Shown here piece after piece: positions 15,809-42,442 of a DNA stretch of 64,000 nucleotides. Location of the stretch: positions 8,945 to 72,944 of the forward strand of contig CALDNN010000196.1 of the NCBI GenBank assembly GCA_937915455.1. Reading direction: 5' to 3'. Numbering within the stretch: position 1 is the first letter of the stretch; each line of letters opens with the position of its first letter. This stretch comes from an uncultured Clostridia bacterium. Lineage in GTDB: Bacteria > Bacillota > Clostridia > Christensenellales > CAG-138. The notes beneath the pieces were generated by a model that saw nothing but the letters and a program-made list of their open reading frames with translations, was not told the DNA's origin and ran no database searches. The translations under genes and the position numbers were made by a program.

Positions 15809-15846
15809 AGAGGCCGGCGCAGAGCGGCTCGATGGAAAACCCACGT

Positions 15847-18447: not shown

Positions 18448-18517
18448 TGTTTTCTCCCTCCCATTTTGTTTAATATAAACACGCCTAATGGTGTTTACTT
18501 GACCGGATATGACCGCT

Positions 18518-19564: not shown

Positions 19565-19565
19565 G

Positions 19566-20582
19566 TTAGATCTCCCTTGCCTTAAGCTGGTTTTTCTGCA
19601 GCGCGCGCTGCGCTAGGATATTAATGATGATGGCCAGCAGAATGATGAGGCCCTTGATCGCCCGCTGCCAGAATTGCGAAATGCCGATCAGCGGCAGCGC
19701 CTTGCTGATTACGGTCATGGTTAGCGCGCCCAACAGCACGCCCACCACCGAGCCCTGGCCGCCGCTGAGGCTCACGCCGCCCAGTACGCAGGCGGCGATG
19801 GCGTCCATCTCCATACCCGTGGCCATGTCGTTTTGGGCGGAGGCGTAGAGCGCTGTATACATCGCGCCCACCAGGCCTGAAAAGCTGCCCATCATGGTAT
19901 AGACCACGAGCTTGATGCGCTTGATGCGGATGCCGCTGATGGACGCGGCCTCCGGGTTGCTGCCCACTGCGTAGATACGCCTGCCAAAGCGCGTCCAGCG
20001 CATGACGACGAAGAACACAGCGTAACAGATGAGCGCGATAAAGATTAGGTTGTTCATCAGGCCAAAGGAGAGCGTGTTGGTCTGCGCGAATTGCTTGAAG
20101 GAAGCCTGGAACTGATAGGCCGAGACCCATTGGCTATCCGAAACGAGGTAGGTCGCGCCACGAAAAATATTCGTCAGGCCCAATGTGGCAATGATGGGGA
20201 TTACCTGGCCGTAGGCAATCACAGAGCCCACGAGCAGGCCGCAGAGCGTGCCGATGGCGATGCTCACCAGGAACATGACCAGCGTGGAGGAATAGACGCC
20301 CTCGCGCATCAGCAGCGAGGCGCACATCCCCGAGAAGGCCAGGGAAGAGGCCACGGAGATATCGATGCCACCGATGAGCAGCACGCTCATCATGCCGAGG
20401 GAGAGCGTGATGGTGGTGGAGTAGTTCTTGAGCATATCCTCGATGGTTTTGCCTGTGAGGAAGCTATGGTTTCTAGCTTGAATAAACGCGCAGATCAGCG
20501 CCAGCACGAGGAAGAGCGTCATTTCACGAGAGGCGGTGAGGCGCTTCCAAAGGGCCTTAAAATCGAAAGAAGTCTTTTGCAT
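19566..20582 (-). CDS. Sugar ABC transporter permease (RbsC/RhaP-like)
   Basis: 338 aa, polytopic, a paralog of the downstream permease. Confidence 0.85.
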   Translation of the reverse strand: MQKTSFDFKALWKRLTASREMTLFLVLALICAFIQARNHSFLTGKTIEDMLKNYSTTITLSLGMMSVLLIGGIDISVASSLAFSGMCASLLMREGVYSSTLVMFLVSIAIGTLCGLLVGSVIAYGQVIPIIATLGLTNIFRGATYLVSDSQWVSAYQFQASFKQFAQTNTLSFGLMNNLIFIALICYAVFFVVMRWTRFGRRIYAVGSNPEAASISGIRIKRIKLVVYTMMGSFSGLVGAMYTALYASAQNDMATGMEMDAIAACVLGGVSLSGGQGSVVGVLLGALTMTVISKALPLIGISQFWQRAIKGLIILLAIIINILAQRALQKNQLKAREI

Positions 20583-20595
20583 CTGCTATCCCTCC

Positions 20596-22104
20596 TTACG
20601 CGCCCTGGGCAGGCTGCGCGTGTTTGCGCATGGCCAGCTCGAGGATGCGCTCCTGCGTGGCCTCGGCCCGGCTCAGCTCGCCGGTCATCCGTCCGTCGCA
20701 CATCACGAAGATGCGGTCGCACATGCCGAGGATCTCGGGCATTTCGGAGGAGATCATGATCACGGCAAGGCCCGCTTCGGCCAGCTCGCCCATAATCTCG
20801 TAAACGGCCGCCTTCGCGCCCACATCCACACCCTTGGTCGGCTCGTCCATGATGAGTACTTTGAGGGAGGAGTTGAGCGCCTTGGCGACCACCACCTTTT
20901 GCTGGTTGCCGCCGGAGAGCGAGCTGCATGCATCAAAGATTGAAACCGCCCTTACATCTACCCTCTCGGCCAGGCGCTTGGCGTCGGCGTTTTCCTCGCT
21001 TTCGGAAAGGACGCCGTATTTTGCGTAGCGCTTGAGCTCGGATAGGGTGATGTTGCGTCCAATGCCCCAATCCAACAGCAGGCCCTGCTGCTGGCGGTCC
21101 TCCGTGAGTAGGCCGATGCCCAGGCGCATGGCATCCTGCGGCTTTTTGATGGAAACGGGCTTGCCTTCAAGGAAAATCTTGCCTGCGTCGTAGCGCTCCA
21201 CGCCAAAGAGCGTTTGGACCACCTCCGTACGCCCAGCGCCCACCAATCCGGTGAGGCCCACGATCTCGCCACGCCGCACATTTAGGGAGACATCCTTAAA
21301 ATAGCCCGCGTGGCTCAGCCCCTCCACCTGCAGCACCTCTTCGCCCGGCACGATGGAGGGCTTGGGGAAGAGCTCCTTGATCTCGCGGCCCACCATGGCC
21401 TTAATCAGCTCCGGCTCGGTGATGGTGGCCGCATCGAAGGTGCCGATATAATGCGCATCGCGGAAAACCGTGACCCGCGAGGCCAGGCGGTACATATCCT
21501 CCAGCCTGTGCGAGATGAAGATGATGGATGTGCCCTCGTCCCGTAGGGCCTCGGTGATGCGGTAAAGCTCTTCGGATTCGCTTTTGGTCAGGGCGGCCGT
21601 GGGCTCATCCATGATGATGATGTTCGCGTTCATGGAGAGGGCTTTGGCGATCTCCACCATCTGCTGCTGGGCTACGGATAGCGAGCTCATCAGCGCCGTG
21701 GCGCTGAAGGATACGCCCAAGGGGCGAAGCAGCTCCTCTGCGCGGCGGTTCATTTCCTTCCATTGCAATAGGCCGCCCTTGACGCACTCGTGGCCCATAA
21801 AAATGTTTTCCGCCACAGAAAGATGCGGGTAGCTGGTCACATGCTGGTAGATGGCTGCGATGCCGTGGCGCTGGGCGTCCAGCGGCGTCTTGAATTCCAC
21901 CTTCCGGCCATCCATGAAGACGCTACCCTCGTCGGGCTGGTGCACGCCGGTAATCACCTTGATGAAGGTGGATTTACCTGCGCCGTTTTCCCCCATGATG
22001 GCGTGGATCTCGCCAGGCAGCAATTGGAAGCTCACCCGGTCGAGCGCCTTCACGCCCGGGAAAACCTTTGTGATATTCTTTAGTTCCAAACGGAATTCGG
22101 ACAT
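20596..22104 (-). CDS. Sugar ABC transporter ATP-binding protein with duplicated ABC domains (RbsA/RhaT-like)
   Basis: 502 aa. Walker A GENGAGKST, a second degenerate P-loop GLVGAGRTE, and two signature motifs. Confidence 0.9.
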   Translation of the reverse strand: MSEFRLELKNITKVFPGVKALDRVSFQLLPGEIHAIMGENGAGKSTFIKVITGVHQPDEGSVFMDGRKVEFKTPLDAQRHGIAAIYQHVTSYPHLSVAENIFMGHECVKGGLLQWKEMNRRAEELLRPLGVSFSATALMSSLSVAQQQMVEIAKALSMNANIIIMDEPTAALTKSESEELYRITEALRDEGTSIIFISHRLEDMYRLASRVTVFRDAHYIGTFDAATITEPELIKAMVGREIKELFPKPSIVPGEEVLQVEGLSHAGYFKDVSLNVRRGEIVGLTGLVGAGRTEVVQTLFGVERYDAGKIFLEGKPVSIKKPQDAMRLGIGLLTEDRQQQGLLLDWGIGRNITLSELKRYAKYGVLSESEENADAKRLAERVDVRAVSIFDACSSLSGGNQQKVVVAKALNSSLKVLIMDEPTKGVDVGAKAAVYEIMGELAEAGLAVIMISSEMPEILGMCDRIFVMCDGRMTGELSRAEATQERILELAMRKHAQPAQGA

Positions 22105-22117: not shown

Positions 22118-23362
22118 TTATCCGCGCTCATAAGCCCTAGCGATTGCTAACCACTCTCCATCCTGCGGAGTGCCACGCTGCTCGCAATAATGCGCCCAAA
22201 CCGCGCCGAAAGGCATGGTTTTACGATCTTCCAGAGCGGCGAAGCGGGCTGTGTAATCCCCGGCATATTCCACCTCGCGGATGGCCCGCGCGGGCGCGAG
22301 GCAGGATTTGAGCAGCGCCTTGCGCGCGTTGCGCATGCCGATGGCCCAGGCCGCGATGCGGTTGATGGAGGCGTCGAAATAATCGAGGCCGATGAACACC
22401 CGCTCTTCGAGGCCATTCCAGATGATCTCGTCCATGATGCGCATCAGCTCGTCGTCTAGGGTGATCACGTGGTCGCTATCCCAGCGCACGCCGCGGCTCA
22501 CATGCAGCAGGATCTTATCGAGGAATTGCAGCACCGCGGTGATCTTGGCGCTGATGACCTCGGTGGGATGGAAATGGCCCGCGTCCAGCGTATAGAGCTT
22601 GCCGCGCGAAAGGGCGTAGCCCAGCGCGTACTCGTGGCTGGCCACCGTGTAGCTTTCCACGCCCACGCCAAAGAGCTTACTCTCCACAGAGCAGGGGACG
22701 AGCGCCTCGTCGATGGGCTCTTTAAAGATAGCGTCCAGCGATGCGGTCATCAGGTCGCGGCGGCGCACGGTATCCACGCACACATCCTTATAGCCATCCG
22801 GCATCCAATAATTGACCGTGCAGGGTTGGCCAGTGCCTTTGGCGAATTCGAGGGCGATCTCGCGGCAGCGCTTGCCGTGCTCAATCCAGAAGCTGCGCGT
22901 GCCCGGATCGAAGCTGCTGAGCGAAAAGTCGCCGTCCATTCTGGGGTGCGAAAAATAGGTGGGGTTGAAATCGAGACCCAGGCCGGTCTGCTTAGCCCAA
23001 TCCAGCCAGGCGGCGAATTGCTCGATCGTATAAGCGTCGCGGTCGATCTTGCGTCCGCCCTTCTCCGCGTAGCTGGCATGCAGGCTCAGCTTGGTGCGGC
23101 CCGGAATCAGGCGCAGGGCCGCCTCGATATCCGCTCGAAGCTCACCCGGCGTGCGGGCGCGGCCCGGGTAATTGCCGGTGGTCTGTATGCCGCCACTGAG
23201 GGCGTCCGAACCGTCGAAGCCGATCACATCGTCCCCCTGCCAGCAATGCATGGATACGGGAACCGCGTCCGCCCGGGCGATGGCGGCTTCCACATCTACG
23301 CCCACAGCGGCATATTGCTCTTTGGCGATTTCAAACGCCTGGTTGATCTTTACGCTCTCCAT
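22118..23362 (-). CDS. rhaA: L-rhamnose isomerase
   Basis: 414 aa. N-terminus AFEIAKEQYAAVGVDVEAAIARADAVPVSMHCWQGDDVIGFD is colinear with the E. coli RhaA N-terminus. Confidence 0.95.
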   Translation of the reverse strand: MESVKINQAFEIAKEQYAAVGVDVEAAIARADAVPVSMHCWQGDDVIGFDGSDALSGGIQTTGNYPGRARTPGELRADIEAALRLIPGRTKLSLHASYAEKGGRKIDRDAYTIEQFAAWLDWAKQTGLGLDFNPTYFSHPRMDGDFSLSSFDPGTRSFWIEHGKRCREIALEFAKGTGQPCTVNYWMPDGYKDVCVDTVRRRDLMTASLDAIFKEPIDEALVPCSVESKLFGVGVESYTVASHEYALGYALSRGKLYTLDAGHFHPTEVISAKITAVLQFLDKILLHVSRGVRWDSDHVITLDDELMRIMDEIIWNGLEERVFIGLDYFDASINRIAAWAIGMRNARKALLKSCLAPARAIREVEYAGDYTARFAALEDRKTMPFGAVWAHYCEQRGTPQDGEWLAIARAYERG

Positions 23363-23426: not shown

Positions 23427-23741
23427 CTATTTATGCAAAAATACCTGCCGCAGTAGCGGCTGCGCACCGGTCACAGGATCCATCTCCATGGCCATAACGT
23501 CTTTCATATAGTCGTTCCATCTTTGCACGACAGGGCTCTCGGCCTGCACCCGAGCCGCGTGCGCCACGCTCTCGCATTCGTAATAGCCGAAAAGCTCGTC
23601 GCCTACGTTCCAGATCGTATAGTTGTGGATGCCGGCCTTGTTGAGCACCTCGGTCATCACCGGCCAGATGGCATCGTGCCTGTGGATATATTCTTCCAGC
23701 TTCCCGGGCAGCACGCGCGCCTTCCAAGCGTAACGTTCCAT
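23427..23741 (-). CDS. rhaM: L-rhamnose mutarotase
   Basis: 104 aa. Starts MERYAWKARVLPGKLEEYIHRHDAIWPVMTEVL and contains NYTIW....LFGYYE. Confidence 0.9.
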   Translation of the reverse strand: MERYAWKARVLPGKLEEYIHRHDAIWPVMTEVLNKAGIHNYTIWNVGDELFGYYECESVAHAARVQAESPVVQRWNDYMKDVMAMEMDPVTGAQPLLRQVFLHK

Positions 23742-23969: not shown

Positions 23970-24040
23970 GATTATGTTATGTTTGTCATTGCTTAATGTT
24001 GGTTAACTATCAAAATATCTTGGCTTGGAGGACATCTTCT

Positions 24041-24928
24041 ATGGCGGGCGTTCAATTAAACTATGAGCTGGATATTACGTCCAATTCCACCTGGCTCACC
24101 GTCACATCCGGCCAGCAGGCCAAGCAGAGCCTGCCCTATGTGCAGGAGGTGGGGGATTTTCTTGCGCGGGAAAAATACTATACGCGGCGCGAGGGGCTGC
24201 CATCTTATCTGATCAAATACGTCGTTTCCGGCGAGGGCCTGCTGGAGTATAACGGCGCTACGGAAACCGTGAGCCCGGGCCAGGCCTTCTGGATCGAGTG
24301 CCGCAAGCCGCAGTTTTACCAAACCAGCCCCATAAAAAAGGAATGGCATATGCTCTGGGTGCATTTTTACGGCCATGGCTGTGCGCGCTATTATGACCTC
24401 TTTTTATCGCAAAACGATGGTTGCAACGTGATCACCCTCCCTCCCAATACCGCCGCGCCGGCCATCCTGCGCGAGCTGATGGAGATCTACAGGTACGGGC
24501 AAAGCTCCCTGGCAGGGGATATCCGCGCGGCCAGGCTGCTGACGGACCTGATGAGCGATTGCGCCCTGAGCGCCTGCACCCTGCCGGAGCATGAGATGGT
24601 GCCCGACTGCATCCAGGAGGCGCGCACGTATTTGCTGGATAACTACCATATGCGCATTACGCTGGATGATCTGGCCAAGCGCTTTTCAATGAACAAGTTC
24701 TATTTTCAAAAGCTCTTCAAGCGCTACACGGGCTTCACGCCCAACGAATTTTTGATCTTTACACGGCTCAACCGGGCCAAGGAGCTTTTGCGTACCACCA
24801 ACGATACCATCAACCAGATCGCCTTTGAGGTGGGCATCGAAAACTCCAGCCACTTCATCAACCAGTTTAAGCAGCGCGAGGGGATCACGCCCCATGCCTT
24901 CCGCCAGAGCTGGTATAAGATGATTTAG
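24041..24928 (+). CDS. AraC/XylS-family transcriptional regulator (RhaR/RhaS-like; cupin sensor + dual HTH)
   Basis: From ORF 23996..24928. Start MAGVQLNYELD lies after GGAGGA. The C-terminal HTH_18 region contains FYFQKLFKRYTGFTPNEF and SSHFINQFKQREGITP. Confidence 0.9.
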   Translation: MAGVQLNYELDITSNSTWLTVTSGQQAKQSLPYVQEVGDFLAREKYYTRREGLPSYLIKYVVSGEGLLEYNGATETVSPGQAFWIECRKPQFYQTSPIKKEWHMLWVHFYGHGCARYYDLFLSQNDGCNVITLPPNTAAPAILRELMEIYRYGQSSLAGDIRAARLLTDLMSDCALSACTLPEHEMVPDCIQEARTYLLDNYHMRITLDDLAKRFSMNKFYFQKLFKRYTGFTPNEFLIFTRLNRAKELLRTTNDTINQIAFEVGIENSSHFINQFKQREGITPHAFRQSWYKMI

Positions 24929-25070: not shown

Positions 25071-26132
25071 ATGGATTTTTTTACAACGCATCAGGAAAGG
25101 CTGCAAGCCTTCCGCACGCTCTCCTGTGAGATCGGCGCGCGGACGGATTATGTGCAGGGCGGGGGCGGCAACACTTCCGTAAAGCTGGAAGGGGGGCTGA
25201 TGGCCATCAAGGCCTCGGGCTACCGCCTAAGCGACATCCGAGAGGACGCGGCCTATGCCGTGCTCGACGGGGCGGCCGTGCGGGAATTCTACCTTTCGCA
25301 CCAGCCAGGGGATTTTAGCGATGTGGAAAGTGAGTGCGCCGCCTTCACCAAGGGGCAGGTCAAGCAAATCGCGGGGCTGGCCGCACTGCGCCCCTCTGTA
25401 GAGGCGGGCTTTCATTCCCTGCTCGACAGATATGTGATCCACAGCCACAGCGTATACGCCAACCTCGCCGCCTGCGCCAAAGAATGCGAAAGCATACTAG
25501 CCGTGGCCTTTGCGGACGCGCACTTCGCCTGGGGCATGGTTCCCTATGTGGATCCGGGCGGCCGGCTTACCTTTTCCATCCGCGATGAGATAAAGCGCGT
25601 GGAAGCGCTAGCGGGCCGCCGGCCGGCCGTGCTGGTGATGCAAAACCACGGCATCATCGCGCATGCGGAGGATGCGGCGGAAGCCATAAGCATCCATGCG
25701 GCCGCAAACGAGCGCCTGGCCGGCTATTTCGGCCTTAGCGGCGATTCCTTCCCGGAGGCGCGTATCCGCCAAACGGGCGAAAACGAATTCGTTTCGGATA
25801 CGCCGTATCTGCAAAGCTTCCTGCGGGGGGATGGCTATCCGGAAGAAAAGCTCTTGGCTGAGCCGCTCTATCCGGATCAAATGGTGTTTTTAACCGGCAC
25901 GCTGGGCGAGACGGCTTTGATCGATCGTGCGAGCGGCACGGTGCGGTATCGCATGGAGGAAAGCGCCGCCCTCACCCTGGAGCAAACGCTCATGGCCGTT
26001 GTTTTTATTGAAGAAACGCTGCGCGCAGCCAACCTGACCCTGCAAACGATGGGAGAGGCGGCCAAAGCCTTTATTGCCAACTGGGAAAGCGAGAAATACC
26101 GCAAGCAGCTGGCCGCGGGTGCGAAGCCATGA
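25071..26132 (+). CDS. Class II aldolase/adducin-domain protein, RhaE-like (probable L-rhamnulose-1-phosphate aldolase), stand-alone
   Basis: From ORF 25050..26132. The ATG at 25071 has the upstream AGAGGA. GGGNTSVK N-terminal motif, PSVEAGFH (catalytic Glu), IHSH (Zn His pair), QNHG. Confidence 0.75.
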   Translation: MDFFTTHQERLQAFRTLSCEIGARTDYVQGGGGNTSVKLEGGLMAIKASGYRLSDIREDAAYAVLDGAAVREFYLSHQPGDFSDVESECAAFTKGQVKQIAGLAALRPSVEAGFHSLLDRYVIHSHSVYANLAACAKECESILAVAFADAHFAWGMVPYVDPGGRLTFSIRDEIKRVEALAGRRPAVLVMQNHGIIAHAEDAAEAISIHAAANERLAGYFGLSGDSFPEARIRQTGENEFVSDTPYLQSFLRGDGYPEEKLLAEPLYPDQMVFLTGTLGETALIDRASGTVRYRMEESAALTLEQTLMAVVFIEETLRAANLTLQTMGEAAKAFIANWESEKYRKQLAAGAKP

Positions 26133-27610
26133 CGCGCGATATGCTGGCCTTCGACCTGGGCGCTTCCAACGGCCGCGCCGTGCTGGCCCGCTTCGACGGC
26201 GATAAGCTGGTCCTTTCGGAGCTGCACCGCTTCCCCAACGCGCTACATAATAAGGGCGGGCTCTCCTATTGGGATGCGGGCGCGCTCTTTGCCGAGCTAA
26301 AGGAGGGCTTTCACGCCTACAGCCGGGATGTGGGCGGCGAGCTTTCCAGCTTCGGCATCGATACCTGGGGTGTGGATTACGGCCTGCTCGATGCGGGCGG
26401 CGGCCTGATCGGCGACCCACGCGCCTACCGCACCGCCGTGGATGACGATATGGATCTAGCGTGGCAGCGGGCGGATAAGCACGGGCTTTTTGCCCGCACG
26501 GGTATCGCGGCTATGTCCTTCAACACTGTATACCAGCTCTATAGGCGCGTGCGAGAAAACGACGAGCAGCTGGCCAGCGCGCACACCCTGCTCTTGATGC
26601 CCGATCTTTTGGGCTATTTCTTTACCGGCGATAAGCTCACCGAATATACCAATGCCACCACCACCAATCTGCTGGCCGCGGATACCGCTTCTTGGGATGG
26701 CGAGACCTTGCGCCTGTTGGATATCCCGGCGCGCATCTTTACCGCCATCGATTTCCCCGGTACGCTTCGCAGCCCCCTTAAAACCGAGCTTGCAAACGAG
26801 CTTGGCCTGCGAAACGTGCGTTTGGCCGCTGTGGGGACGCATGACACGGCCTCGGCAGTAGCGGCCATACCGGGTGAGGGCAGCTTCGCCTTTTGCTCGA
26901 GCGGCACATGGTCCCTCTTTGGCGTGGAAACGGAAAAGCCCATGCTGACGGATGCGGTGTTCGCGGCGAATTTTTCCAACGAGGGCACCGTGCAGGGTGG
27001 CTTCCGGCCACTCAAAAACATCATGGGCCTGTGGATCATTCAGGAATGCCGCAGGGAGTGGGCGGCCGAAGGTAAGGCGTTTTCATGGGACGAGCTCGTA
27101 CGTCTGGCCAAAAGGGAAGCCCCCTTCCGCTCGGTGATCGATCCGGACGACGCACCCTTTTTCAAGCCGGGTGCTATGCTGCAAAAGATCCGCGTCTATT
27201 GCCTAGAAACGGGCCAGATTGCGCCGGAAACGGAAGGGCAGTTCGCGCGGTGCGTATACGAAAGCTTGGCGCTCAAATACCGCCATGCCCTGGAAACGCT
27301 GGAAACCATCAAGGGCAGGCGCATCGATACGCTCAATATCGTGGGCGGCGGCAGCCAAAACGGCCTTTTGAACCAGATGGCCGCGGATGCCACGGGCCGC
27401 ACTGTGGTCACCGGCCCCATCGAGGGCGCGAGCGCCGGCAACGCGCTGATGCAAGCGCAGGCGCTGGGTGAGATCAGGAATATTGCAGAAGCGCGCGAGG
27501 TCATCCGCCGCTCTTTCCCGCTGACCGTGTGGGAGCCGCGGCAAACGCAGGCCTGGCAGGATGCTTATGCGCGACTGCTGCGCTATATGGAGGTAAAGAA
27601 GCATGCTTGA
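26129..27610 (+). CDS. rhaB: Rhamnulokinase (FGGY family)
   Basis: 493 aa. N-terminus LAFDLGASNGRAVLARF....LHRFPN. ATGA overlap with the upstream gene. Confidence 0.9.
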   Translation: MTRDMLAFDLGASNGRAVLARFDGDKLVLSELHRFPNALHNKGGLSYWDAGALFAELKEGFHAYSRDVGGELSSFGIDTWGVDYGLLDAGGGLIGDPRAYRTAVDDDMDLAWQRADKHGLFARTGIAAMSFNTVYQLYRRVRENDEQLASAHTLLLMPDLLGYFFTGDKLTEYTNATTTNLLAADTASWDGETLRLLDIPARIFTAIDFPGTLRSPLKTELANELGLRNVRLAAVGTHDTASAVAAIPGEGSFAFCSSGTWSLFGVETEKPMLTDAVFAANFSNEGTVQGGFRPLKNIMGLWIIQECRREWAAEGKAFSWDELVRLAKREAPFRSVIDPDDAPFFKPGAMLQKIRVYCLETGQIAPETEGQFARCVYESLALKYRHALETLETIKGRRIDTLNIVGGGSQNGLLNQMAADATGRTVVTGPIEGASAGNALMQAQALGEIRNIAEAREVIRRSFPLTVWEPRQTQAWQDAYARLLRYMEVKKHA

Positions 27611-28478
27611 TATGACGGTTTACGAGGAGATCGCGCGTAAACATGCGGCTAAGCGATCGCAAACGGGCGGCAGGCTCTCGGGCAGGGTCGCCCTGGTCAC
27701 GGGCGGCGCACAGGGCTTTGGCAGGGGCATCGCACAGGAACTATACCGCGAGGGCGCTTCCATATGCATCGCCGATCTCAACGGACCGCTGGCCCAGCAA
27801 ACGGCAGGGGAGATGGGCGAGCGCGCCTTTGCCGTGAAAACGGACGTGACGGATGAGCAAAGTGTGGCGGCGATGATCGCTGCCTGCGTGGAGCGCTTCT
27901 ATGGCCTCGATATCCTGGTCTCTAATGCCGGTATCCTCAAGGCCGGTTCGCTCGATGAAATGGAGAAGCGGGATTTCGAGCTGGTGACCAGCGTTAATTA
28001 TACGGCGTATTTCACCTGCGTCAAATACGCCAGCCGCATTATGAAGGCGCAGCACGAAGCCGCGCCTGAAGAATTTTACGACATTATCGAGATCAATTCC
28101 AAATCGGGCCTTGCGGGCAGCAAAAAAAACTTTGCCTACGCGGGGAGCAAGTTTGGCGGCATCGGTCTCACGCAGAGCTTCGCCCTGGAGCTTGCGCCCT
28201 ATAACATAAAGGTCAACGCCATCTGCCCGGGCAATTTTTACGATGGACCGCTGTGGAGCGACCCGGAGAAGGGCCTCTTTGTGCAATACCTGCGCGCGGG
28301 CAAGGTGCCCGGCGCGAAAACGCTGGCAGATGTTAAGACGCATTACTTAAACAAATCCCTCATTAAGCGCGGCTGCACGCCAGAGGACGTAGCCAAGGCC
28401 ATCTTCTACTGCGTGGAGCAAACCTTTGAAACCGGGCAGGCGATCCCGGTTACGGGCGGGCAGGTGATGCTCAGATGA
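27603..28478 (+). CDS. Short-chain dehydrogenase/reductase, RhaW-like (probable L-lactaldehyde dehydrogenase half of RhaEW)
   Basis: 291 aa. VTGGAQGFG cofactor motif and a YAGSK catalytic tetrad segment. GGAGGT lies 8 nt upstream. 8-nt overlap with rhaB. Confidence 0.75.
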   Translation: MLDMTVYEEIARKHAAKRSQTGGRLSGRVALVTGGAQGFGRGIAQELYREGASICIADLNGPLAQQTAGEMGERAFAVKTDVTDEQSVAAMIAACVERFYGLDILVSNAGILKAGSLDEMEKRDFELVTSVNYTAYFTCVKYASRIMKAQHEAAPEEFYDIIEINSKSGLAGSKKNFAYAGSKFGGIGLTQSFALELAPYNIKVNAICPGNFYDGPLWSDPEKGLFVQYLRAGKVPGAKTLADVKTHYLNKSLIKRGCTPEDVAKAIFYCVEQTFETGQAIPVTGGQVMLR

Positions 28479-29542
28479 TCGATCAATTGCTGCTCGATAA
28501 GCTTAACGCCCCCACCAAAGAGGAGCGGCTCTCCGCCCTGCGTACCGCCCTGCAAACGGCGGCCTTCCCGCCGATGGACGAGCGGCTCGTGAACAACCAC
28601 ATCCACACCACCTTCTCCTTTTCGCCCTATTCGCCCACGGCCGCGGTCTATGCCGCACGGGCGGAGGGGCTTTGCACCTGCGGTATTGTCGATCACGATT
28701 CCATGGGTGGGGCGGAGGAATTCATTGAGGCGGGCAAGCTCGTTGGCATCCCCACCACGGTCGGCGTCGAGTGCCGCGTTTCCATGGCTGGAACCCCCTT
28801 TGAAAACCTTCGCACCAACAACCCCGATCAGTTGGGCGTGAGCTATATGGCCCTGCACGGCGTGCCGCACAGATCCATCCCCTATATACAGGCCTTTTTC
28901 GCCCCCCTGCGGGAAAAGCGCAACAATCGCAACCGCGAAATGCTCGATCGCATTAACGCCGAAATTGGCGTATCGCTCGATTTTGAACGCGATGTGCTGC
29001 CGCTTTCGCAATACGCGAACGGAGGCACGGTCACCGAGCGCCACCTGATGCAGGCGCTGGCGCGCAAGCTCGAGCCGCATAATGCCATGCTGGCAGAATA
29101 CGGCCTCATCGGCACGCTCAAAAAGGACTGCATCCCCAAGGTTTACATCCCCGCCACGGCGGAATGCCCGCGCCTTGATGAGATCGTGGGCCTGGGCAAG
29201 GAGACCGGGGCCATCCTCTGCTACGCCTATTTGGGGGATGTTACGGCTTCCGTCACAGGCGATAAAAAGGCGCAACGCTTTGAGGATGAAAATCTCGAGC
29301 TGCTGTTCGAAACGCTCGTGGAGCGCGGCGTTCGCGCCCTCACCTATATGCCCACCCGCAATACGGACGCACAGCTTGACAGGCTTCGCGCGCTCTGCGA
29401 GCGCTACGGCTTTTTGCAGGTGAGCGGCGAGGATATCAACTCGCCCCGCCAGAGCTTCGTCATTGAAAAAATGCACGAACCGCGCTTTGCGAATCTTATC
29501 GAAAGCACCTGGGCAATCATCCGCAACGAAACGGAGGAATAA
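28475..29542 (+). CDS. PHP-domain (polymerase/histidinol-phosphatase superfamily) metal-dependent phosphoesterase, function unknown
   Basis: 355 aa. NNHIHTTFSFSPYSP (HxH) and GIVDHDS motifs. ATGA overlap with the SDR gene. Confidence 0.7.
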   Translation: MIDQLLLDKLNAPTKEERLSALRTALQTAAFPPMDERLVNNHIHTTFSFSPYSPTAAVYAARAEGLCTCGIVDHDSMGGAEEFIEAGKLVGIPTTVGVECRVSMAGTPFENLRTNNPDQLGVSYMALHGVPHRSIPYIQAFFAPLREKRNNRNREMLDRINAEIGVSLDFERDVLPLSQYANGGTVTERHLMQALARKLEPHNAMLAEYGLIGTLKKDCIPKVYIPATAECPRLDEIVGLGKETGAILCYAYLGDVTASVTGDKKAQRFEDENLELLFETLVERGVRALTYMPTRNTDAQLDRLRALCERYGFLQVSGEDINSPRQSFVIEKMHEPRFANLIESTWAIIRNETEE

Positions 29543-29544
29543 AA

Positions 29545-30837
29545 GTGAACCTTTCCTATTTGCACCCGGCGGATCAACTGGTGATGTTCATGCAGCGCAT
29601 CTACGACAAGGGGCTGACCACCACCTCGGGCGGCAATCTTTCCATCCTGGATGAAGAGGGCAATCTCTGGATCACCCCAGCGGGCATCGACAAGGGCACC
29701 TTAACGCGGCAGGATATCATCTGTATCCGGCCGGACGGAACCGCCATCGGCCCGCATAAGCCCTCGAGCGAGCTGCCCTTTCACCAATCCATCTATAAAA
29801 AGCGTGAGGATATCAAGGCTGTGTTGCACGCGCACCCGCCAGCGCTGGTGGCCTTTTCCATCGTGCGCAAAACCCCCGCGCTGGGCCTGATTCCTTCCGT
29901 ATATAAGACCTGCGGCGACGTGGCCATGGCGTCCTACGCCCTACCCGGCAGCGAGGAGCTGGGCGATAACATTGCGGCGGAATTTGAAAAGGACGTCAAC
30001 ATCGTAATGCTCGAGAACCACGGCGTATGCATTGGCGCGAAGGATATGTTCACGGCCTTTATGATGTTCGAAACGCTCGAATACACGGCCAACCTCGAAA
30101 TGCTCGCCTGCAGGCTGGGCAAGCCCAATGCGCTGGATGCGGCCTCTTTTGCCGTAACGGAGACCCGTTACCACCTGCGCATGGATGATTTCATCCCCAA
30201 TGCCAGGAGTTCCGAGGAGTTGGCTGCGCGGCGCGATATGGTCACCCTCATCCACCGCTCGTACCGCCAGGGGCTGTTTACGGCCACGCAGGGTACCTAC
30301 TCCGTGCGCCTCGCGGACGGCAGTTTTCTCATCACCCCGTTTGGTAAAGACCGCGCCTATCTCAATGAAGAGGACCTCGTGCGCGTGAAGGCGGGCATGA
30401 AGGAGCAGGGGAAGACCCCGTCTCGCGCCGTGCGGGTGCACGAGTTGATCTACGAAAAGAACCCCCATGTCAACGCCGTGCTGCTGGCGCACCCGCCCAA
30501 GGCCATGGCCTTTGCCGTTACGGATGCTCCCTTTGACCCGCGCACTATACCGGAGAGCTACATCCTCCTACGCGATATCGAGAAGCGGCCGTTTTGCGAG
30601 CTTTACACAGCGCCCGAAAAGGTGGCTACGGAATTTAAAGAAAACCGGCCCGCGCTCATCTTCCACAACGACTGCGTGATCGTGACCGGTGGCACGCTTT
30701 TGCAGGCCTTTGACCGGCTGGAGGTGCTGGAATCCACAGCCCATTCCATTTTGAATGCCGTGGATCTGGGACCTGTGGCGCATATCTCGGAAACCGAGGT
30801 GGAGGGGCTCAAAACAGCCTTCCATCTGAAAGACTGA
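29545..30837 (+). CDS. Tandem (two-domain) class II aldolase/adducin-family protein; N-domain catalytic, C-domain degenerate
   Basis: 430 aa with a GTG start 6 nt after GGAGGA. The N-domain has PSSELPFH, HAHP and ENHG. The C-domain shows PSRAVRVH, LAHP and FHND at the equivalent positions. Confidence 0.8.
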   Translation: MNLSYLHPADQLVMFMQRIYDKGLTTTSGGNLSILDEEGNLWITPAGIDKGTLTRQDIICIRPDGTAIGPHKPSSELPFHQSIYKKREDIKAVLHAHPPALVAFSIVRKTPALGLIPSVYKTCGDVAMASYALPGSEELGDNIAAEFEKDVNIVMLENHGVCIGAKDMFTAFMMFETLEYTANLEMLACRLGKPNALDAASFAVTETRYHLRMDDFIPNARSSEELAARRDMVTLIHRSYRQGLFTATQGTYSVRLADGSFLITPFGKDRAYLNEEDLVRVKAGMKEQGKTPSRAVRVHELIYEKNPHVNAVLLAHPPKAMAFAVTDAPFDPRTIPESYILLRDIEKRPFCELYTAPEKVATEFKENRPALIFHNDCVIVTGGTLLQAFDRLEVLESTAHSILNAVDLGPVAHISETEVEGLKTAFHLKD

Positions 30838-30870
30838 CCCAACGATGACTATTATTTGGAGGTGTTTGCT

Positions 30871-32133
30871 TTGAAAACGAAGGCGGTGCGCCTATACGGC
30901 GTGAACGATCTAAGGCTCGAGGAGTTCGAGCTGGGCCCTATAGGCGATGACGACGTGCTCTGCGAGGTGATGTGCGATAGCCTCTGCATGTCGAGCTACA
31001 AGGAAGCTTCGCAGGGTGCGGCGCACAAGCGCGTGCCGGACGACGTAGCGGAGAACCCCGTCATCGTGGGTCATGAGTTTTGCGGCAGGATCGTGGAGGT
31101 GGGTAAAAACTGGCGCCATAAATACCGGCCGGGCCAGGGCTTTGCCATCCAGCCCTCGCATTTTTATCAGGGTTCGCTATCCGCGCCCGGCTATTCCTAT
31201 CCGCTCTGCGGCGGCGATGCTACGTATGTAAAAATTCCCCTGGAAACCCTGCTCTCAGACTGCCTGCTGCCGTATGAGAGCGATACCTTCTTTTATGGTT
31301 CGCTGGCGGAACCGATGAGCTGCATCGTGGGCACCTACCACGCTATGTACCACACAGAGCTCGGCAGCTACGAGCATAAGATGGGCATCGTGGATGGCGG
31401 CAAGCTGGCCCTTCTTGCAGGCGCCGGGCCCATGGGCCTGGGTGCAATCGACTATGCGCTCCACAGCGAGCGCAGGCCCGGCCTGCTCGTGATAACGGAT
31501 ATTGATGACGAGCGTCTGGCCCGTGCCGAAAGCATCTATACCGTAGAACATGCGGCGGCCTGCGGCATAGAACTTAAATATGTGAATACGGCCAAAACTG
31601 AAAGCCCGGTGGCGGCCCTGTTGGAACTGACGGGCGGCACGGGCTATGACGACGTGATCTGCTTCGCACCCGTGCGAGCGGTGGCGGAGCAGGCGGACGC
31701 CATCCTAGGCCAGGACGGCTGCCTCAACTTCTTCGCCGGCCCCTCGGATACATCCTTTACCGCGGGCATGAATTTCTATAACATCCACTATGCAGGCCAT
31801 CACGTGATGGGCACCTCGGGCGGCAATACGGATGACATGCGCGAATCCATCGCCCTGATGAACGCGGCTAAGCTTAACCCCGCCGCCATGATCACCCACA
31901 TCGGCGGGCTTAACTGCGTGCCGGAAACCACCATCAACCTGCCGCACATCGCAGGTGGCAAAAAACTCGTCTACACGCACCTTGATATGCCACTCACAGC
32001 CCTTGCTGAATTTGAGCAAAAGGGCCGGGATGACCCGCTGTTTGCCGGGCTCGGCCGCATCGTCAAGGAGCATGGCGGCATGTGGTGCGCGGAGGCGGAG
32101 CAATACCTGCTCGCGCACGCAAAAACCGAATAG
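30871..32133 (+). CDS. Zn-dependent medium-chain dehydrogenase/reductase, L-sorbose-1-phosphate-reductase-like
   Basis: From ORF 30856..32133. Likely TTG start (MKTKAVRLYG) 6 nt after GGAGGTG. Contains CDSLCMSSYK, GHEFCGRIVEVG and the Rossmann motif GAGPMGLG. Confidence 0.75.
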   Translation: MKTKAVRLYGVNDLRLEEFELGPIGDDDVLCEVMCDSLCMSSYKEASQGAAHKRVPDDVAENPVIVGHEFCGRIVEVGKNWRHKYRPGQGFAIQPSHFYQGSLSAPGYSYPLCGGDATYVKIPLETLLSDCLLPYESDTFFYGSLAEPMSCIVGTYHAMYHTELGSYEHKMGIVDGGKLALLAGAGPMGLGAIDYALHSERRPGLLVITDIDDERLARAESIYTVEHAAACGIELKYVNTAKTESPVAALLELTGGTGYDDVICFAPVRAVAEQADAILGQDGCLNFFAGPSDTSFTAGMNFYNIHYAGHHVMGTSGGNTDDMRESIALMNAAKLNPAAMITHIGGLNCVPETTINLPHIAGGKKLVYTHLDMPLTALAEFEQKGRDDPLFAGLGRIVKEHGGMWCAEAEQYLLAHAKTE

Positions 32134-32237: not shown

Positions 32238-32433
32238 ATTCAAGAATGCTTTTGCGTCTCGACGCGGCTTCGCCTCCGGTAGAAAACGGTTGGGACGCAC
32301 CCCATCCGGCGTGTTATGCTGATAGGGAAAACCTCGGGTCAAAGGCCGCTTGCGGCCCGGACCGCAAAAGGAGAATGCCTTATGATATCCATGACCGGCC
32401 GCGCCTGTGCCGCGATTATGGGCTGATCCGCTC

Positions 32434-33228
32434 ATGGCGAGGAACAAGAACGCGATAACCATTACCCTGCTGGCAAACGCCGGCCTTATAGTAGAACACG
32501 CCGGCACACGCATCCTTATCGACGGCCTGTTTGCAAGGCAGGGCCATCCGTTCAGCACCCTGCCAACCAACATGTATGATGAAATGATGCGGGGGGAGGG
32601 GCTATTTGCGCAGGCCGATTACCTGGTTTTTTCCCATGGCCATCCGGATCATTACGACCCGGAGGCCGTGGCGCAATATCTGCAAAGGAACCGCGTGCGC
32701 GGCCTGTTCCTGCCCCCGGATGCGGGCGGCTGCAACGCACCGGCCAAGGAGGCTGCCAGGGCGCAGGGCGCGTATGTTTGGGAATCCGGCTTGGAGTTGG
32801 GGCAGGCGCATGCCTGCGAACTGCAAAGCGGCCTCCGGCTGGAACTGCTGGCCTTGCCGCATATGGAGATGGGCTCTTTCAGCGCATATGGGCAGGTGGA
32901 TTGCAGCTGCATCCTGCTGGAGTTTGACGGCCGCAGCCTGTTCTTTGGCGGCGATTGTGACGCCCTGCCGCCGGCGCGCTTCGCGCCCTTTACTCAAACC
33001 GAGATCGAGGCGGCTTTCATCAACCCTTATTTTTACCATACGGCCCGGGGCCGGGCCGCCCTGTGCAACTATATCCGGCCCAGGCATACTTTTATCTGCC
33101 ACCTGCCCTTTGCGGGGGAGGAAGACACCCTGCAGCTGCACGCCCTGCTACGGCATGATCTACGCCGCGCAGAGGGCCCGGCCGCCGTACCGCTGGACGG
33201 GCTATGCCAGCAGGCCGTTCTGGCGTGA
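32434..33228 (+). CDS. MBL-fold metallo-hydrolase
   Basis: From ORF 32407..33228. Start uncertain: GTG at 32407 or ATG at 32434. HxHxDH motif SHGHPDHYD. Confidence 0.75.
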   Translation: MARNKNAITITLLANAGLIVEHAGTRILIDGLFARQGHPFSTLPTNMYDEMMRGEGLFAQADYLVFSHGHPDHYDPEAVAQYLQRNRVRGLFLPPDAGGCNAPAKEAARAQGAYVWESGLELGQAHACELQSGLRLELLALPHMEMGSFSAYGQVDCSCILLEFDGRSLFFGGDCDALPPARFAPFTQTEIEAAFINPYFYHTARGRAALCNYIRPRHTFICHLPFAGEEDTLQLHALLRHDLRRAEGPAAVPLDGLCQQAVLA

Positions 33229-33356
33229 AGCTGGGGCGATAATCGAGCATTTCGCGCCGGATGTTATCATCCGGGGCCGTGAACTGCACGAGGCTAAGAG
33301 CGTGCAGGCCGCCCTCTGGCAACTAAAAAGGAATGACTGGGTGTAAATTAAATGGC

Positions 33357-33391
33357 GCGGCGCGGATGCATATCCGCGCCGCCGTGCTTTT
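33357..33391. terminator. Bidirectional terminator between the MBL hydrolase and GNAT genes
   Basis: GGCGCGGAT / ATCCGCGCC extended stem with loop GCAT. T-run on the plus side and A/T-rich on the other. Confidence 0.7.
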
Positions 33392-35034: not shown

Positions 35035-37518
35035 ATGGAAAGTCAGGTATTGAGCATTCGTGGCATGACCTGCGCGGCCTGCGCCCAGCGCATCGAGAAG
35101 GCCGTAAAAAAGCTGCCCGGCGTGCAGCAGGCTGCCGTGAATCTGGCGAGCGAAAAGCTCTTTGTGGAATATGGCGAGGACGCTACCCTAGAGGATATCA
35201 AGGCGGCCGTGACCAAAATTGGCTATGAAGTCGAGGAAAAGGCGGCAAACAGCACCATCGCCATCCCCATCGGCGGCATGACCTGTGCTGCCTGTTCGCA
35301 GCGCGTCGAAAAGGTGCTCAATCGCCTCGACGGGGTGGTGAGCGCCTCGGTCAACCTGGCCACCGAAAAGGCCACGGTTACCTACGAGCCGCAGAAGATA
35401 CGCCAATCCGCCATCAAGGCGGCCATCGAAAAGGCTGGCTACCAGCCTTTGGAAATCGCCAAGACCGACGCCGCCGAGGAAGACCGGCTACGCAAGCAAA
35501 AGGCCATCCGCCTGCAATGGATCAAGTTCATCGTGGCCGCGGCCTTTGGCCTGCCGCTCCTATATATCGCTATGGCGCCCATGATAAGCTTTGTGCGTCT
35601 GCCCTTCCCGGCCTGGCTGCAGCCCATGCGCTACCCATTGATCTACGGCCTGGTGCAGATCGCGTTGGTGATCCCCATCATTGCCGTGGGGCATAGGTTT
35701 TACACCGTAGGCTTCAAGGCGCTTTGGCAGCGCAGCCCGAATATGGATTCGCTCATCGCCATCGGCACCACGGCCGCTGTGGTCTACAGCGTGTATAACG
35801 TATTTCAAATCGTTAAGGGCCATTATATGGCCGTGGACGCGCTCTATTTTGAGACCGCAGGCGTGATCATCGCCCTCATCATGCTGGGCAAAACGCTAGA
35901 AGCCGTTTCCAAGGGGAAGACCAGCGAGGCCATCAAAAAGCTGATGGGCCTAGCCCCCAAAACAGCCATCATCCTGCACGATGGCGAGGAAAAGGAAATC
36001 CCCATCGACGAGGTGGAAATCGGCGATATCCTCATCGTCAAGCCCGGCGCGAAAATACCCGTGGATGGCACCGTGCTTTCCGGCCACACGGCCATCGATG
36101 AATCCATGCTCACCGGCGAGAGCATGCCTGTGGATAAAAAAGCGGGGGATGCGGTCTACGCCGCGTCGCTCAACACCAACGGCAGCATCCAGTTCCGCGC
36201 CGAAAAGATCGGTAGCGATACGGCCCTGGCGCAAATCATCAAGCTGGTGGAGGATGCGCAGGGCTCCAAGGCCCCCATCGCCCAAATGGCGGATATCGTC
36301 TCCGGCTATTTCGTGCCTATCGTCGTGGCTATCGCCCTGGTTGCGGGCCTCGTCTGGCTGATCGGCACGGGCGGGGATGTGAAATTCAGCCTCACCATCT
36401 TCATCTCCGTGCTGGTCATCGCCTGTCCCTGCGCCCTGGGCCTGGCCACCCCCACAGCCATCATGGTGGGCACGGGAAAGGGCGCGGAAAACGGCATCCT
36501 CATCAAGGGGGGCGAAGCGCTGGAAACGGCGCACAAGGTGGATACCATCGTTTTCGATAAGACCGGCACCATCACCGAGGGCAAGCCCACGGTTACGGAT
36601 GTTCTGCCCGCAGACGGTTTCTCCGAAGAGGCGCTTATGCGCGTCACCGCCTCTGCGGAAATGGGTTCCGAGCACCCGCTGGGCCAGGCCATCGTGCAGG
36701 GTGCGCAGGAAAAGGGCCTGGAGCTTATGCAGGTGGCGGATTTCGAAGCCCTCACGGGCCGGGGCATCCGCGCCAAGATCAACGGCCAAACCATCCTCGC
36801 GGGCAACCGCAAGCTGATGGAAGAGCAGGGCGTCGCCCTGGGTGCGTTCGAGGCCGAGGCGGATAGGCTGGCCGGTGAAGGCAAGACCCCTATGTATGTG
36901 GCTGCGGATAACAGCCTTGCCGGCATCGTGGCCGTGGCGGATGTGGTCAAGCCCAGCAGTCGCCGGGCCATCGAGCGCCTGCATAAGATGGGCATTCAGG
37001 TGGCGATGATTACCGGTGATAACAAAAAGACCGCCGGCGCCATTGCCAAGCAGGTGGGGATCGACCGGGTACTGGCCGATGTGCTGCCGCAGGATAAAGC
37101 GGGCGAGGTCAAAAAGCTGCAAGCCGAAGGCCGTAAGGTGGCCATGGTGGGGGATGGCATCAACGACGCGCCCGCCCTGGCCCAGGCAGATGTGGGCATC
37201 GCTATCGGCTCGGGCACGGATGTGGCCATGGAGTCCGCGGATATCGTGCTCATGCGCAGCGATCTGATGGATGTTTCCGCGGCCATCGAGCTGAGCAAAA
37301 AGACCATCCGCAACATCAAGCAGAATTTGTTCTGGGCCTTTGGCTATAACTCCATCGGCATTCCCATCGCGGCGGGCCTGCTGTACCTGTTCGGCGGCCC
37401 CCTGCTCAACCCGATCTTCGCCGCCGCGGCCATGAGCCTCAGCTCCGTTTCGGTGGTGACCAACGCCCTGCGGCTCAAAGGCTTCAAGGTGACCCATTCC
37501 GAAGAGGAGGCGGTTTAG
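35035..37518 (+). CDS. copA: Copper-translocating P1B-type ATPase
   Basis: 827 aa. Two N-terminal HMA domains (GMTCAAC twice), CPC ([11 protein letters not shown]), [13 protein letters not shown]. Confidence 0.95.
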
Positions 37519-37520
37519 CC

Positions 37521-38192
37521 ATGAAAAACACCAAACGTATTGTTATGATCTCTCTGCTGGTGGCGCTGCTGCTCCTTTCCGCCGCCTGCGCCCAATTGAA
37601 ACAGGATCTGGATGTGATCGGGAAAGGCTCCACAGATTCCTTTGAAGCGCTGCTGCTAGCCGCGCCGGAGCAGATCAAAGATACGGCGGGTGGCTGGGCC
37701 TTCCAAGCGCCGGATGGCGGCGCGAAGTTCATCTGGCGTGAGGATTGGAGCGCCGGCAACGACGTTCAGCTCGTCTTCGACGCCTCGCCCTTCCTGGCCG
37801 CCGGGCTGGATGCAGCCAAGCTACCGGAAGCTTACGCCTACGATGGCGAAACCATCACTATGGGCGTGGAATTAGGCGAAGCATCCGTACAGGATGGTAC
37901 GCCCCTTGGGGCCTACGAGCGGATCGTCAGGCTCGCGCCGGATGCCATCGGCTACCATAGCGATATGGATCACTTTGGTGTGAGCCTGGGGGGCGGCAAT
38001 ATGTTCGAGTGGGCCAACGATTTAGAAGCCAATAATAAGGATATCGTATTTGCCCTCAACCCCGAACCGCTAATCGCTGCCGGGGTCGATCCGGGCGCTG
38101 TGGCGGGCTGGGCCTTTGCCAAGGTCTCCATGCACGAGCGCGGTAAAACGGTAGACGTAGATAGGCTTTTAAAGCCCTTCAACTTAGTATAA
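37521..38192 (+). CDS. Hypothetical lipoprotein with internal duplication, embedded in the cop operon
   Basis: Lipobox LLLLSAAC. Starts 2 nt after the copA stop. Two repeats align (GAKFIWREDWSAGNDVQLVFDASPFLAAGLD vs GNMFEWANDLEANNKDIVFALNPEPLIAAGVD). HSDMDH lies between them. Confidence 0.75.
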   Translation: MKNTKRIVMISLLVALLLLSAACAQLKQDLDVIGKGSTDSFEALLLAAPEQIKDTAGGWAFQAPDGGAKFIWREDWSAGNDVQLVFDASPFLAAGLDAAKLPEAYAYDGETITMGVELGEASVQDGTPLGAYERIVRLAPDAIGYHSDMDHFGVSLGGGNMFEWANDLEANNKDIVFALNPEPLIAAGVDPGAVAGWAFAKVSMHERGKTVDVDRLLKPFNLV

Positions 38193-38213
38193 ATAGAGAA
38201 AACGGAGGAAATT

Positions 38214-42401: not shown

Positions 42402-42442
42402 AGAAGTACCTCGCCTTTACGGGGGCTCTATCGTGACGAAGA

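Follow-up and report, generated by a model that had tools for sequence, protein, structure and literature searches.

A conserved SDR–PHP gene pair in rhamnose and fucose clusters of gut Clostridia and its possible role in cleavage of deoxyketose phosphates

Among described systems, RhaEW of B. subtilis (YuxG) and C. aurantiacus (Caur_2283; PMC3870299) stands close to the one considered here, a rhamnose catabolic locus of an uncultured Clostridia bacterium. We analyzed a stretch of 64,000 nucleotides (GenBank assembly GCA_937915455.1, contig CALDNN010000196.1, positions 8,945 to 72,944; hereafter the window). In the only biochemical study of RhaEW, the enzyme converts L-rhamnulose-1-phosphate to dihydroxyacetone phosphate (DHAP) and lactate with NAD+, NADH is inactive, and neither DHAP nor lactate is formed without NAD+; lactaldehyde itself is not among the substrates offered to it in the section on that assay (PMC3870299). 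As no product appears without NAD+, cleavage and oxidation are tightly coupled, and either may come first. In the window, the RhaW-type short-chain dehydrogenase/reductase (SDR) is followed by a PHP-fold protein, a tandem class II aldolase (tAld) and a zinc-dependent medium-chain dehydrogenase/reductase (MDR). Our comparison of related loci establishes that the conserved evolutionary unit is the SDR–PHP pair, usually accompanied by a rhamnulokinase-like kinase and either MDR or an aldehyde dehydrogenase (ALDH), and that this module is widespread in rhamnose and fucose gene clusters of gut Clostridia.

Pairing of a dehydrogenase with a cleavage enzyme has precedents. In DmpG/DmpF and BphI/BphJ, a metal-dependent cleavage enzyme works with an NAD+-dependent dehydrogenase that removes the toxic aldehyde and whose cofactor stimulates the cleavage. 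This stimulation parallels that reported for RhaEW, but folds and substrates are unrelated, and a physical complex of SDR with PHP would be hypothetical. In the LRA5/LRA6-type steps of the non-phosphorylative rhamnose and fucose pathways, an SDR acts ahead of a metal-dependent FAH-fold hydrolase, which breaks a 2,4-diketo deoxysugar down to L-lactate and a three-carbon keto compound. Their logic resembles that of an SDR–PHP pair in which PHP would act as a hydrolase; unlike here, where a kinase is part of the module, the substrates are unphosphorylated sugar acids and the hydrolase has the FAH fold.

The window resembles the RhaEW systems in several respects. Its SDR is 62–64% identical to the SDR half (W domain) of fused 645-aa RhaEW proteins encoded after RhaB-RhaA in rha operons of Faecousia, related Clostridia, an RhaE-like protein is encoded in the same operon, and the expected net chemistry is ketose-1-phosphate + NAD+ → DHAP + lactate. 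Unlike in RhaEW, the kinase gene separates the gene for E from that for W, the window-type W is always followed by PHP, which is absent from RhaEW loci, and SDR–PHP also occurs in fucose loci and alone without RhaE. The locus is thus a phosphorylative deoxyhexose operon of a known kind carrying an SDR–PHP(–MDR) module that is undescribed in the literature we found: full-text searches brought up no account of a PHP protein from a rhamnose or fucose locus, nor of ketose-1-phosphate dehydrogenases. An initial annotation, made from the DNA letters alone, had likewise known of no characterised pathway for the trio of PHP, tAld and MDR. It had also proposed that the operon holds genes beyond the textbook rhamnose route and that these are linked to deoxyhexose catabolism; both proposals are supported.

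Conservation of the SDR–PHP pair

Loci for comparison were gathered by seeding on tAld (84 loci, 80 from reference genomes and 4 from assemblies) or on PHP (87 loci, 80 from a metagenome scan and the others from assemblies). Genes were called by tblastn against reference proteins together with lists of open reading frames (ORFs) or called genes; several loci are short contigs. PHP homologues are numerous across Clostridia at 65–80% identity, as are those of MDR. Of the 65 PHP loci with room for an SDR gene on the upstream side, 58 have one immediately before PHP, and in some of the remaining loci it lies a few hundred bases off. The stop codon of SDR and the start codon of PHP overlap. The gene downstream of PHP encodes MDR in 36 of 69 loci and a rhamnulokinase-like kinase in 26; tAld takes this place in only one of the 87 loci, the window's own contig (L088).

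The initial annotation had grouped PHP, tAld and MDR as one unit and had taken the SDR for an independent, canonical RhaW step. Neither view withstands the comparison. The SDR is the constant partner of PHP, whereas at least 56 of the 84 tAld loci show neither rhamnose nor fucose genes in the flanking sequence available. Of the 80 genome loci seeded on tAld, L005 alone, 92% identical to the window, has MDR adjoining tAld. Only near relatives of the window (L005, L088, L175 and L176) carry tAld between PHP and MDR; L088 is the same sequence, while L175 and L176 (PHP 81% identical) are one related lineage found separately. The locus L174, with a PHP 70% identical to that of the window, reads kinase-SDR-PHP-MDR without tAld. 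Because L174 lacks tAld and the three-gene order is limited to close relatives, we conclude that, in the window's lineage, tAld entered a junction of PHP and MDR that already existed. The trio as originally defined is thus found mostly outside rhamnose loci, and the better-defined SDR–PHP unit emerges in its place.

The module was found in four contexts. Rhamnose-type loci carry RhaA-RhaE-like-kinase-SDR-PHP-MDR with AraC, RhaM and the same ABC transporter as the window, while fucose-type loci carry a LacI regulator and FucI-FucU-kinase-SDR-PHP-MDR with an ABC transporter of their own. A compact operon, SDR-PHP-kinase-ALDH3-like, lies among unrelated neighbours and is very abundant in human-gut metagenomes. 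The bare trio SDR-PHP-MDR occurs in a Cryosericum metagenome-assembled genome (MAG) and in Lachnospiraceae, where it is accompanied by a divergent ALDH. Nor is the module confined to rhamnose loci: it is about equally frequent in fucose loci and is also seen without nearby sugar genes.

RhaE-like is present in all nine rhamnose-type PHP loci that include RhaA and in none of the ten fucose-type loci. Moreover, no class II aldolase-like sequence was found in any of these ten loci by sensitive tblastn (±10 kb, E ≤ 1e-3), with the two halves of tAld, RhaE, the E domain of RhaEW and E. coli FucA as queries, the last solely as an extra one. The sole matches were short ones of the E-domain query to the 5′ end of the SDR gene, at E ~3e-4. 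In the fucose-type locus L086 the kinase is 58% identical to the RhaB of the window and scores as rhamnulokinase-like, not as fuculokinase-like of the E. coli type.

For the compact operon (L137–L167, e.g., L155:9052-14081 and L144:2938-8498), no isomerase, transporter or aldolase is seen nearby. Its human-gut PHP variant belongs to a 90%-identity cluster of 6042 members, so its carrier is evidently a very common human-gut bacterium. In some fucose-type loci (L086:12473-14065, L114, L116, and L124) a second FGGY kinase of 530 aa, xylulokinase-like, directly follows MDR. The locus L146:2100-11255 has an isomerase-like gene and a kinase only 40% identical, then SDR-PHP-MDR-RhaE-like-tAld, so that RhaE-like and tAld are again adjacent. 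Genes for E2 and E3 of a 2-oxoacid (or acetoin-type) dehydrogenase complex begin 2 nt after MDR in L175:13653-16807 and L176:7303-10457, and E1, E3, and E2 genes adjoin the fucose-type human-gut locus L126:13449-18620 (minus strand).

The PHP active site and the kinship of the SDR

The PHP gene (28475-29542, plus strand) encodes a member of a distinct PHP subfamily, matching PF02811 at 29 bits against a cut-off of 26.4. An AlphaFold2 model built from 20 homologues (pLDDT 93) has the PHP (β/α)7 barrel with a helical insertion domain. Its best solved matches by Foldseek are 3e0f (E 2e-12), Cv1693 (2yb1) and RNase AM (9etk/7ug9), with TM scores of 0.45–0.75 over all four entries, 0.54–0.75 over 3e0f, 2yb1 and 9etk, and ~12–22% identity. 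The protein resembles the phosphoesterases of the TrpH/YciV (RNase AM) and Cv1693 type (COG0613), with which it shares the barrel, the insertion, the HxH, H, E, and D ligands, and the RxxR motif and Arg/His residues of the distal 5′-phosphate pocket. It differs from them in its low identity (about 20%), in several active-site residues and in its context, which is sugar catabolism and not nucleotide or RNA metabolism.

RNase AM binds Mn-α through H13, E72, and D255, Mn-β through E72, H83, and H198, and Mn-γ through D20, H45, and H257; R201 touches the scissile phosphate, while R107, R110, and R141 form the 5′-phosphate pocket (PMC9410882). In an alignment including E. coli RNase AM, we compared the nine ligands of its trinuclear centre (H13, H15, D20, H45, E72, H83, H198, D255, and H257). 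The window PHP keeps metal ligands at H42, H44, H74, E99, and D320, but D20 is replaced by F49, H198 by Y252, H257 by N322, and R201 by D255. The β-4 metal ligand falls on S/A123 by HMMER, or else on H128, which is Q in some members. The full nine-ligand centre is thus not present; the sequence points to one intact metal site and to the loss of the third. Aspartate is also the commonest residue at the site equivalent to R201, in 45 of the 60 aligned sequences (window and representatives) with a residue there. The distal phosphate pocket, by contrast, has been retained, with R149 and R152 invariant, E. coli RNase AM included, and with R189/H190 inside a shared GGxVTxxH motif.

When 1.8 billion representatives were searched with a profile, 190 family members came up at E ≤ 1e-30. 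Of the 67 representatives aligned (≥340 aa), most carry the active-site signature. Subfamily fusions that keep the signature (P0426, P0414, P0412, and P0415) carry a Mannitol_dh domain, a methyltransferase, a GNAT domain or a PLP-dependent enzyme, the first of which is another joining of a sugar dehydrogenase to PHP. Three proteins of ~850 aa scanned against Pfam, P0443 and P0465 among them, are LPG_synthase_TM fusions. In these three and four others of ~840 aa (the group of P0443, P0465, P0480, P0498, P0499, and P0524) the metal ligands are lost, while this same sub-branch retains the Arg motif and, in most members, Tyr-Asp.

The initial annotation had called this protein a PHP phosphoesterase. 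The fold and the phosphate pocket bear out the first half of that name; the second half is doubtful. Because the third metal site and the scissile-phosphate arginine are lost, phosphoesterase activity appears unlikely, and we rejected a canonical phosphatase at the level of the active site. The residues kept suggest instead that PHP holds a phosphorylated substrate by a remote phosphate and performs non-phosphoryl chemistry at the reduced metal site. In a ketose-1-phosphate, O3 and O4 are separated from the phosphate by roughly the number of bonds that lies between O3′ and the 5′-phosphate in pAp, which would place the C3–C4 bond at the PHP metal.

The SDR gene (27603-28478, plus strand; adh_short, 161 bits) lies in a rha locus with RhaA, RhaM, RhaB, and AraC adjacent. 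Its product has the motifs TGGAQGFG, D58, NAG108, and Y179/K183. The best curated match is sorbitol-6-phosphate dehydrogenase (228 bits), and the 161 bits reached with the SDR part of TIGR02632 are consistent with orthology to W. Given the 62–64% identity to the C-terminal half of RhaEW, its chemistry should match that of RhaW, and the coupling seen in RhaEW is a precedent for a tight link between dehydrogenase and cleavage in SDR–PHP. Fused RhaEW loci lack PHP, whereas split SDR genes always come with it, as one would predict were PHP and the E domain alternative partners of W.

RhaE-like (25071-26132, plus strand, 353 aa, or 360 aa from a start at 25050; PF00596, 64.7 bits) is a separate protein only 27–32% identical to the E domain of RhaEW. 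No E–W fusion is present: the full-length bifunctional aldolase/SDR models score far below their cut-offs, and RhaE-like gives weak matches to their N-terminal domain. It keeps E118, H131, H133, and H200 (numbered from 25050) and is probably either a rhamnulose-1-phosphate aldolase or a 4-epimerase. In the loci sampled, which were seeded on tAld and PHP, it is always accompanied by tAld or by SDR–PHP. A 4-epimerase would explain this constant company, and also why fucose loci need neither RhaE-like nor an aldolase.

The tandem aldolase, the MDR and the remaining genes of the locus

The tAld gene (29545-30837, plus strand, GTG start) encodes two Aldolase_II domains (PF00596, 241 bits). Its N-terminal half keeps E76, H95, H97, and H159 within the motifs PSSELPFH, LHAHPP, and ENHG, which correspond to the catalytic set of FucA (Glu and three Zn-binding His). 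The C-terminal half, 27% identical to the first, is degenerate, with A295, L314, and D376 at three catalytic positions and only H316 kept. Among solved structures, the N half is closest to FucA (4c25) and to the 5-deoxyribulose-1-phosphate aldolase entry 6btd (96 and 90 bits), and the catalytic residues argue for a FucA-like aldolase. As in the class II (Zn) ketose-1-phosphate aldolases FucA and DrdA (4c25, 6btd, and 1fua), the N half has Glu and three His; unlike them, tAld is a tandem fusion whose second half has kept just one His of the catalytic set, its scores stay short of all curated equivalog cut-offs (OtnC 170.7 vs. 250, FucA 152.8 vs. 264, and MtnB 121.8 vs. 137), and it mostly stands alone among housekeeping genes, not in a fucose operon.

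Relatives of tAld number in the thousands at 68–95% identity. Where neighbours were called, it usually stands by itself in a housekeeping setting, for example between MutS-like genes on one side and a peptidase with ruvCAB on the other, beside SHMT, or beside SecA, and the order hisS-aspS-tAld-HAD hydrolase recurs in nine loci (L002:6889-11940 and eight similar ones). Further lone examples are L081, L084, L177, and L179, and conservation is high, with ~70% identity across families. In about 16 of the 84 loci, in three arrangements, tAld is part of a rha operon, always beside RhaE-like or the fused 645-aa RhaEW and never replacing them. We conclude that tAld is a separate, mostly monocistronic gene of housekeeping context. 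Its lone, conserved position and an MtnB score close to the cut-off suggest a constitutive role, perhaps cleavage of 5-deoxyribulose-1-phosphate or methylthioribulose-1-phosphate arising from radical-SAM by-products.

The MDR (30871-32133, plus strand, 420 aa, TTG start; ADH_N and ADH_zinc_N) is of the polyol-dehydrogenase type. Aligned to 1e3j and 3qe3, it has the Zn-ligand and NAD-site residues C39, H68/E69, E147, GAGPMG184-189, and D210 and is probably NAD(H)-dependent. Among solved structures, ketose reductase 1e3j and sorbitol dehydrogenase are closest to it. The initial annotation had likened it to sorbose-1-phosphate reductase; against curated models it stays under all cut-offs, the best being IolM with 69 bits against 450. 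A copy 72% identical to that of the window follows a xylulokinase-like FGGY kinase in L168:6079-11263, without SDR–PHP. That cluster also holds a class II aldolase of the fructose-bisphosphate aldolase/tagatose-bisphosphate type and a FucI_C-type isomerase (weakly like the sulfoquinovose isomerase SftI), is followed by an ABC transporter, and probably encodes a sugar pathway of its own. In the human-gut compact operon, which has no MDR, an ALDH3-like non-acylating aldehyde dehydrogenase occupies the fourth position, after the kinase. Because MDR occurs without SDR–PHP in L168 and the ALDH stands in the human-gut operon without MDR, action on a small shared aldehyde (L-lactaldehyde or glycolaldehyde) fits both better than action on a specific sugar phosphate; the L168 context favours this without proving it.

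The rest of the locus was assigned from the ORF list and Pfam/NCBIfam profile searches of the window proteins, for which a Candidatus Pelethousia MAG is the closest named relative. On the minus strand, an ABC sugar transporter of four genes (17422-22104) marks the left boundary, with a binding protein (17422-18447; Peripla_BP_4), two permeases (18518-19564 and 19566-20582; BPD_transp_2 in each) and a two-domain ATPase (20596-22104; ABC_tran twice). It is also present at 71–78% identity in the related rhamnose loci L085 and L093. The same strand carries L-rhamnose isomerase RhaA (22118-23362; PF06134, 559 bits; NF002203, 596 bits, over the cut-off of 572) and L-rhamnose mutarotase RhaM (23427-23741; PF05336, 87.5 bits). 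The plus strand begins with an AraC-family regulator (23996-24928; AraC_binding and HTH_18), homologues of which occur in related rhamnose loci. Between RhaE-like and the SDR lies the rhamnulokinase-like FGGY kinase (26129-27610, plus strand; TIGR02627, 452 bits, under the cut-off of 528).

From RhaE-like to MDR, the successive junctions read from the DNA are −4, −8, −4, +2, and +33 nt; the gene identities and the last three spacings agree with those first annotated. Shine-Dalgarno-like GGAGG sequences precede the GTG start of tAld and the TTG start of MDR, and a terminator scan of the region revealed no convincing site inside the operon. PHP, tAld and MDR each have thousands of homologues at E < 1e-150 and are genuine genes. 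On the same strand, 270 nt past MDR (region 32407-33382), lies a metallo-β-lactamase (MBL)-fold gene (Lactamase_B_2), in the place that the dehydrogenase-complex genes take in L175 and L176. The strongest terminator-like hairpin of the region (33357-33382) comes after this gene, which might be the last of the transcript. The flanks (13768-17280 and 35035-45941) are unrelated to sugar use and encode a MoeA-like protein, DUF364, malic enzyme, a heavy-metal P-type ATPase, a molybdopterin-binding oxidoreductase subunit and FeoAB.

A tentative pathway and its alternatives

We tentatively favour, at somewhat less than an even chance, a reading in which SDR–PHP is an NAD+-linked cleavage system for 6-deoxyketose-1-phosphates, MDR a lactaldehyde reductase and tAld a FucA-like aldolase. 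The kinase would make a 6-deoxy-L-ketohexose 1-phosphate, and SDR and PHP together would carry out NAD+-linked C3–C4 cleavage to DHAP and L-lactate, as a non-homologous counterpart of RhaE–RhaW. PHP would anchor the 1-phosphate in its arginine pocket while the remaining metal acts on C3/C4. As a metal aldolase, PHP would pass lactaldehyde on to the SDR; alternatively, it would hydrolyse a 4-keto intermediate that the SDR has produced. Through tAld, L-lactaldehyde would be set free and then reduced by MDR to 1,2-propanediol, so that the operon would hold an NADH-producing and an NADH-consuming branch in balance. In rhamnose-type loci, the only ones with RhaE-like, this protein would cleave rhamnulose-1-phosphate or epimerise C4, the only centre distinguishing it from fuculose-1-phosphate, into the fuculose-1-phosphate branch. 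The more specific proposal, that PHP is a new sugar-phosphate C–C cleaving enzyme (metal aldolase or 4-keto hydrolase) replacing FucA/RhaD together with the SDR, and that RhaE-like is a rhamnulose-1-phosphate 4-epimerase feeding the fuculose-1-phosphate branch or tAld, is possible but doubtful.

Several observations weigh against the cleavage reading. Each catalytic role is deduced from sequence and gene context, and the metal count of PHP may be one or two, as H128 may be the β-4 ligand. With tAld near-ubiquitous in these lineages, the fucose-type loci could draw on it, or on a different aldolase gene located elsewhere in the genome, in which case the main argument for PHP replacing an aldolase would fall. 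Furthermore, tAld and SDR–PHP co-occur in at least seven loci of several lineages (L088, L145, L146, L166, L175, L176, and the window) and RhaE-like is present in all rhamnose-type loci, an apparent redundancy if PHP cleaves. Were lactate the product of SDR–PHP, the aldehyde for MDR and ALDH would have to come from elsewhere; were PHP to release free lactaldehyde, the human-gut operon would seem to have no need for both SDR and ALDH. Finally, because loci were seeded on tAld or PHP, the co-occurrence of RhaE-like with them does not come from an unbiased sample.

The foremost alternative, which we consider unlikely, is an ordinary pathway with an accessory protein. RhaE-like in rhamnose loci and a housekeeping tAld encoded elsewhere in the case of fucose would do all aldol cleavage, the SDR would be RhaW acting as lactaldehyde dehydrogenase and MDR a lactaldehyde reductase, and PHP would act on a phosphorylated by-product, e.g., in relief of sugar-phosphate stress or in hydrolysis of a side product. 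A widespread, mostly stand-alone tAld could indeed serve operons that lack an aldolase, and the close kinship of the SDR with RhaW, the MDR found with an unrelated aldolase cluster and the ability of tAld and SDR–PHP to share an operon all accord with such a scheme. It leaves unexplained, however, why practically all loci have PHP paired with the SDR, the stop codon of one gene overlapping the start codon of the next, and why the two travel together through rhamnose, fucose and stand-alone contexts. The pocket of PHP has lost its scissile-phosphate residues, contrary to what a phosphatase would require, and the lack of PHP in fused RhaEW loci is again what is expected of an alternative to the E domain.

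Improbable in our view is a carbonyl shift like that of SorE/SorF on L-sorbose, in which MDR would reduce C2 of the 6-deoxyketose-1-phosphate, an SrlD-like SDR would oxidise C5 to give a 1-deoxy-ketohexose 6-phosphate, and PHP would cleave the latter to hydroxyacetone and glyceraldehyde-3-phosphate. This scheme is redox-neutral and agrees with the sorbitol-6-phosphate dehydrogenase match of the SDR, with an MDR of polyol/ketose-reductase type and with the existence of SDR-PHP-MDR as a self-contained trio. It conflicts with the strong identity of the SDR to RhaW, whose published net reaction gives lactate and DHAP with NADH unused (PMC3870299). In addition, MDR occurs without SDR–PHP, and many SDR–PHP operons have no MDR beside PHP and an ALDH after the kinase instead. 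Least probable by far is the reading first annotated, in which PHP, tAld and MDR form one add-on unit that reduces and/or dephosphorylates rhamnulose-1-phosphate or serves a second rare sugar entering through the same transporter. The three genes are contiguous and tightly spaced in the window and in L175/L176, but the distribution data largely refute this reading: among the sampled loci, tAld directly follows PHP, or adjoins MDR, only in the window and its close relatives, and the same module serves fucose loci that have their own transporter and regulator. Nor does a PHP lacking the catalytic residues for phosphate handling suit a dephosphorylating unit.

Two further candidates were dropped, a module leading from DHAP through methylglyoxal to propanediol and a sink from DHAP through glycerol phosphate to glycerol. 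Both would waste the only ATP-yielding half of the deoxyhexose, and neither agrees with an SDR orthologous to RhaW.

For gut Clostridia, mucus and plant walls supply fucose and rhamnose as major substrates, from which 1,2-propanediol, propionate and lactate arise. The present data question the view of RhaW as a simple lactaldehyde dehydrogenase and of RhaE as a simple aldolase. If SDR–PHP does cleave deoxyketose phosphates, pathway models that look for FucA/RhaD and FucO/AldA would mis-score these organisms, and the PHP superfamily would gain a non-phosphoesterase function. The module points to a common, uncharacterised step in the deoxysugar metabolism of the gut.

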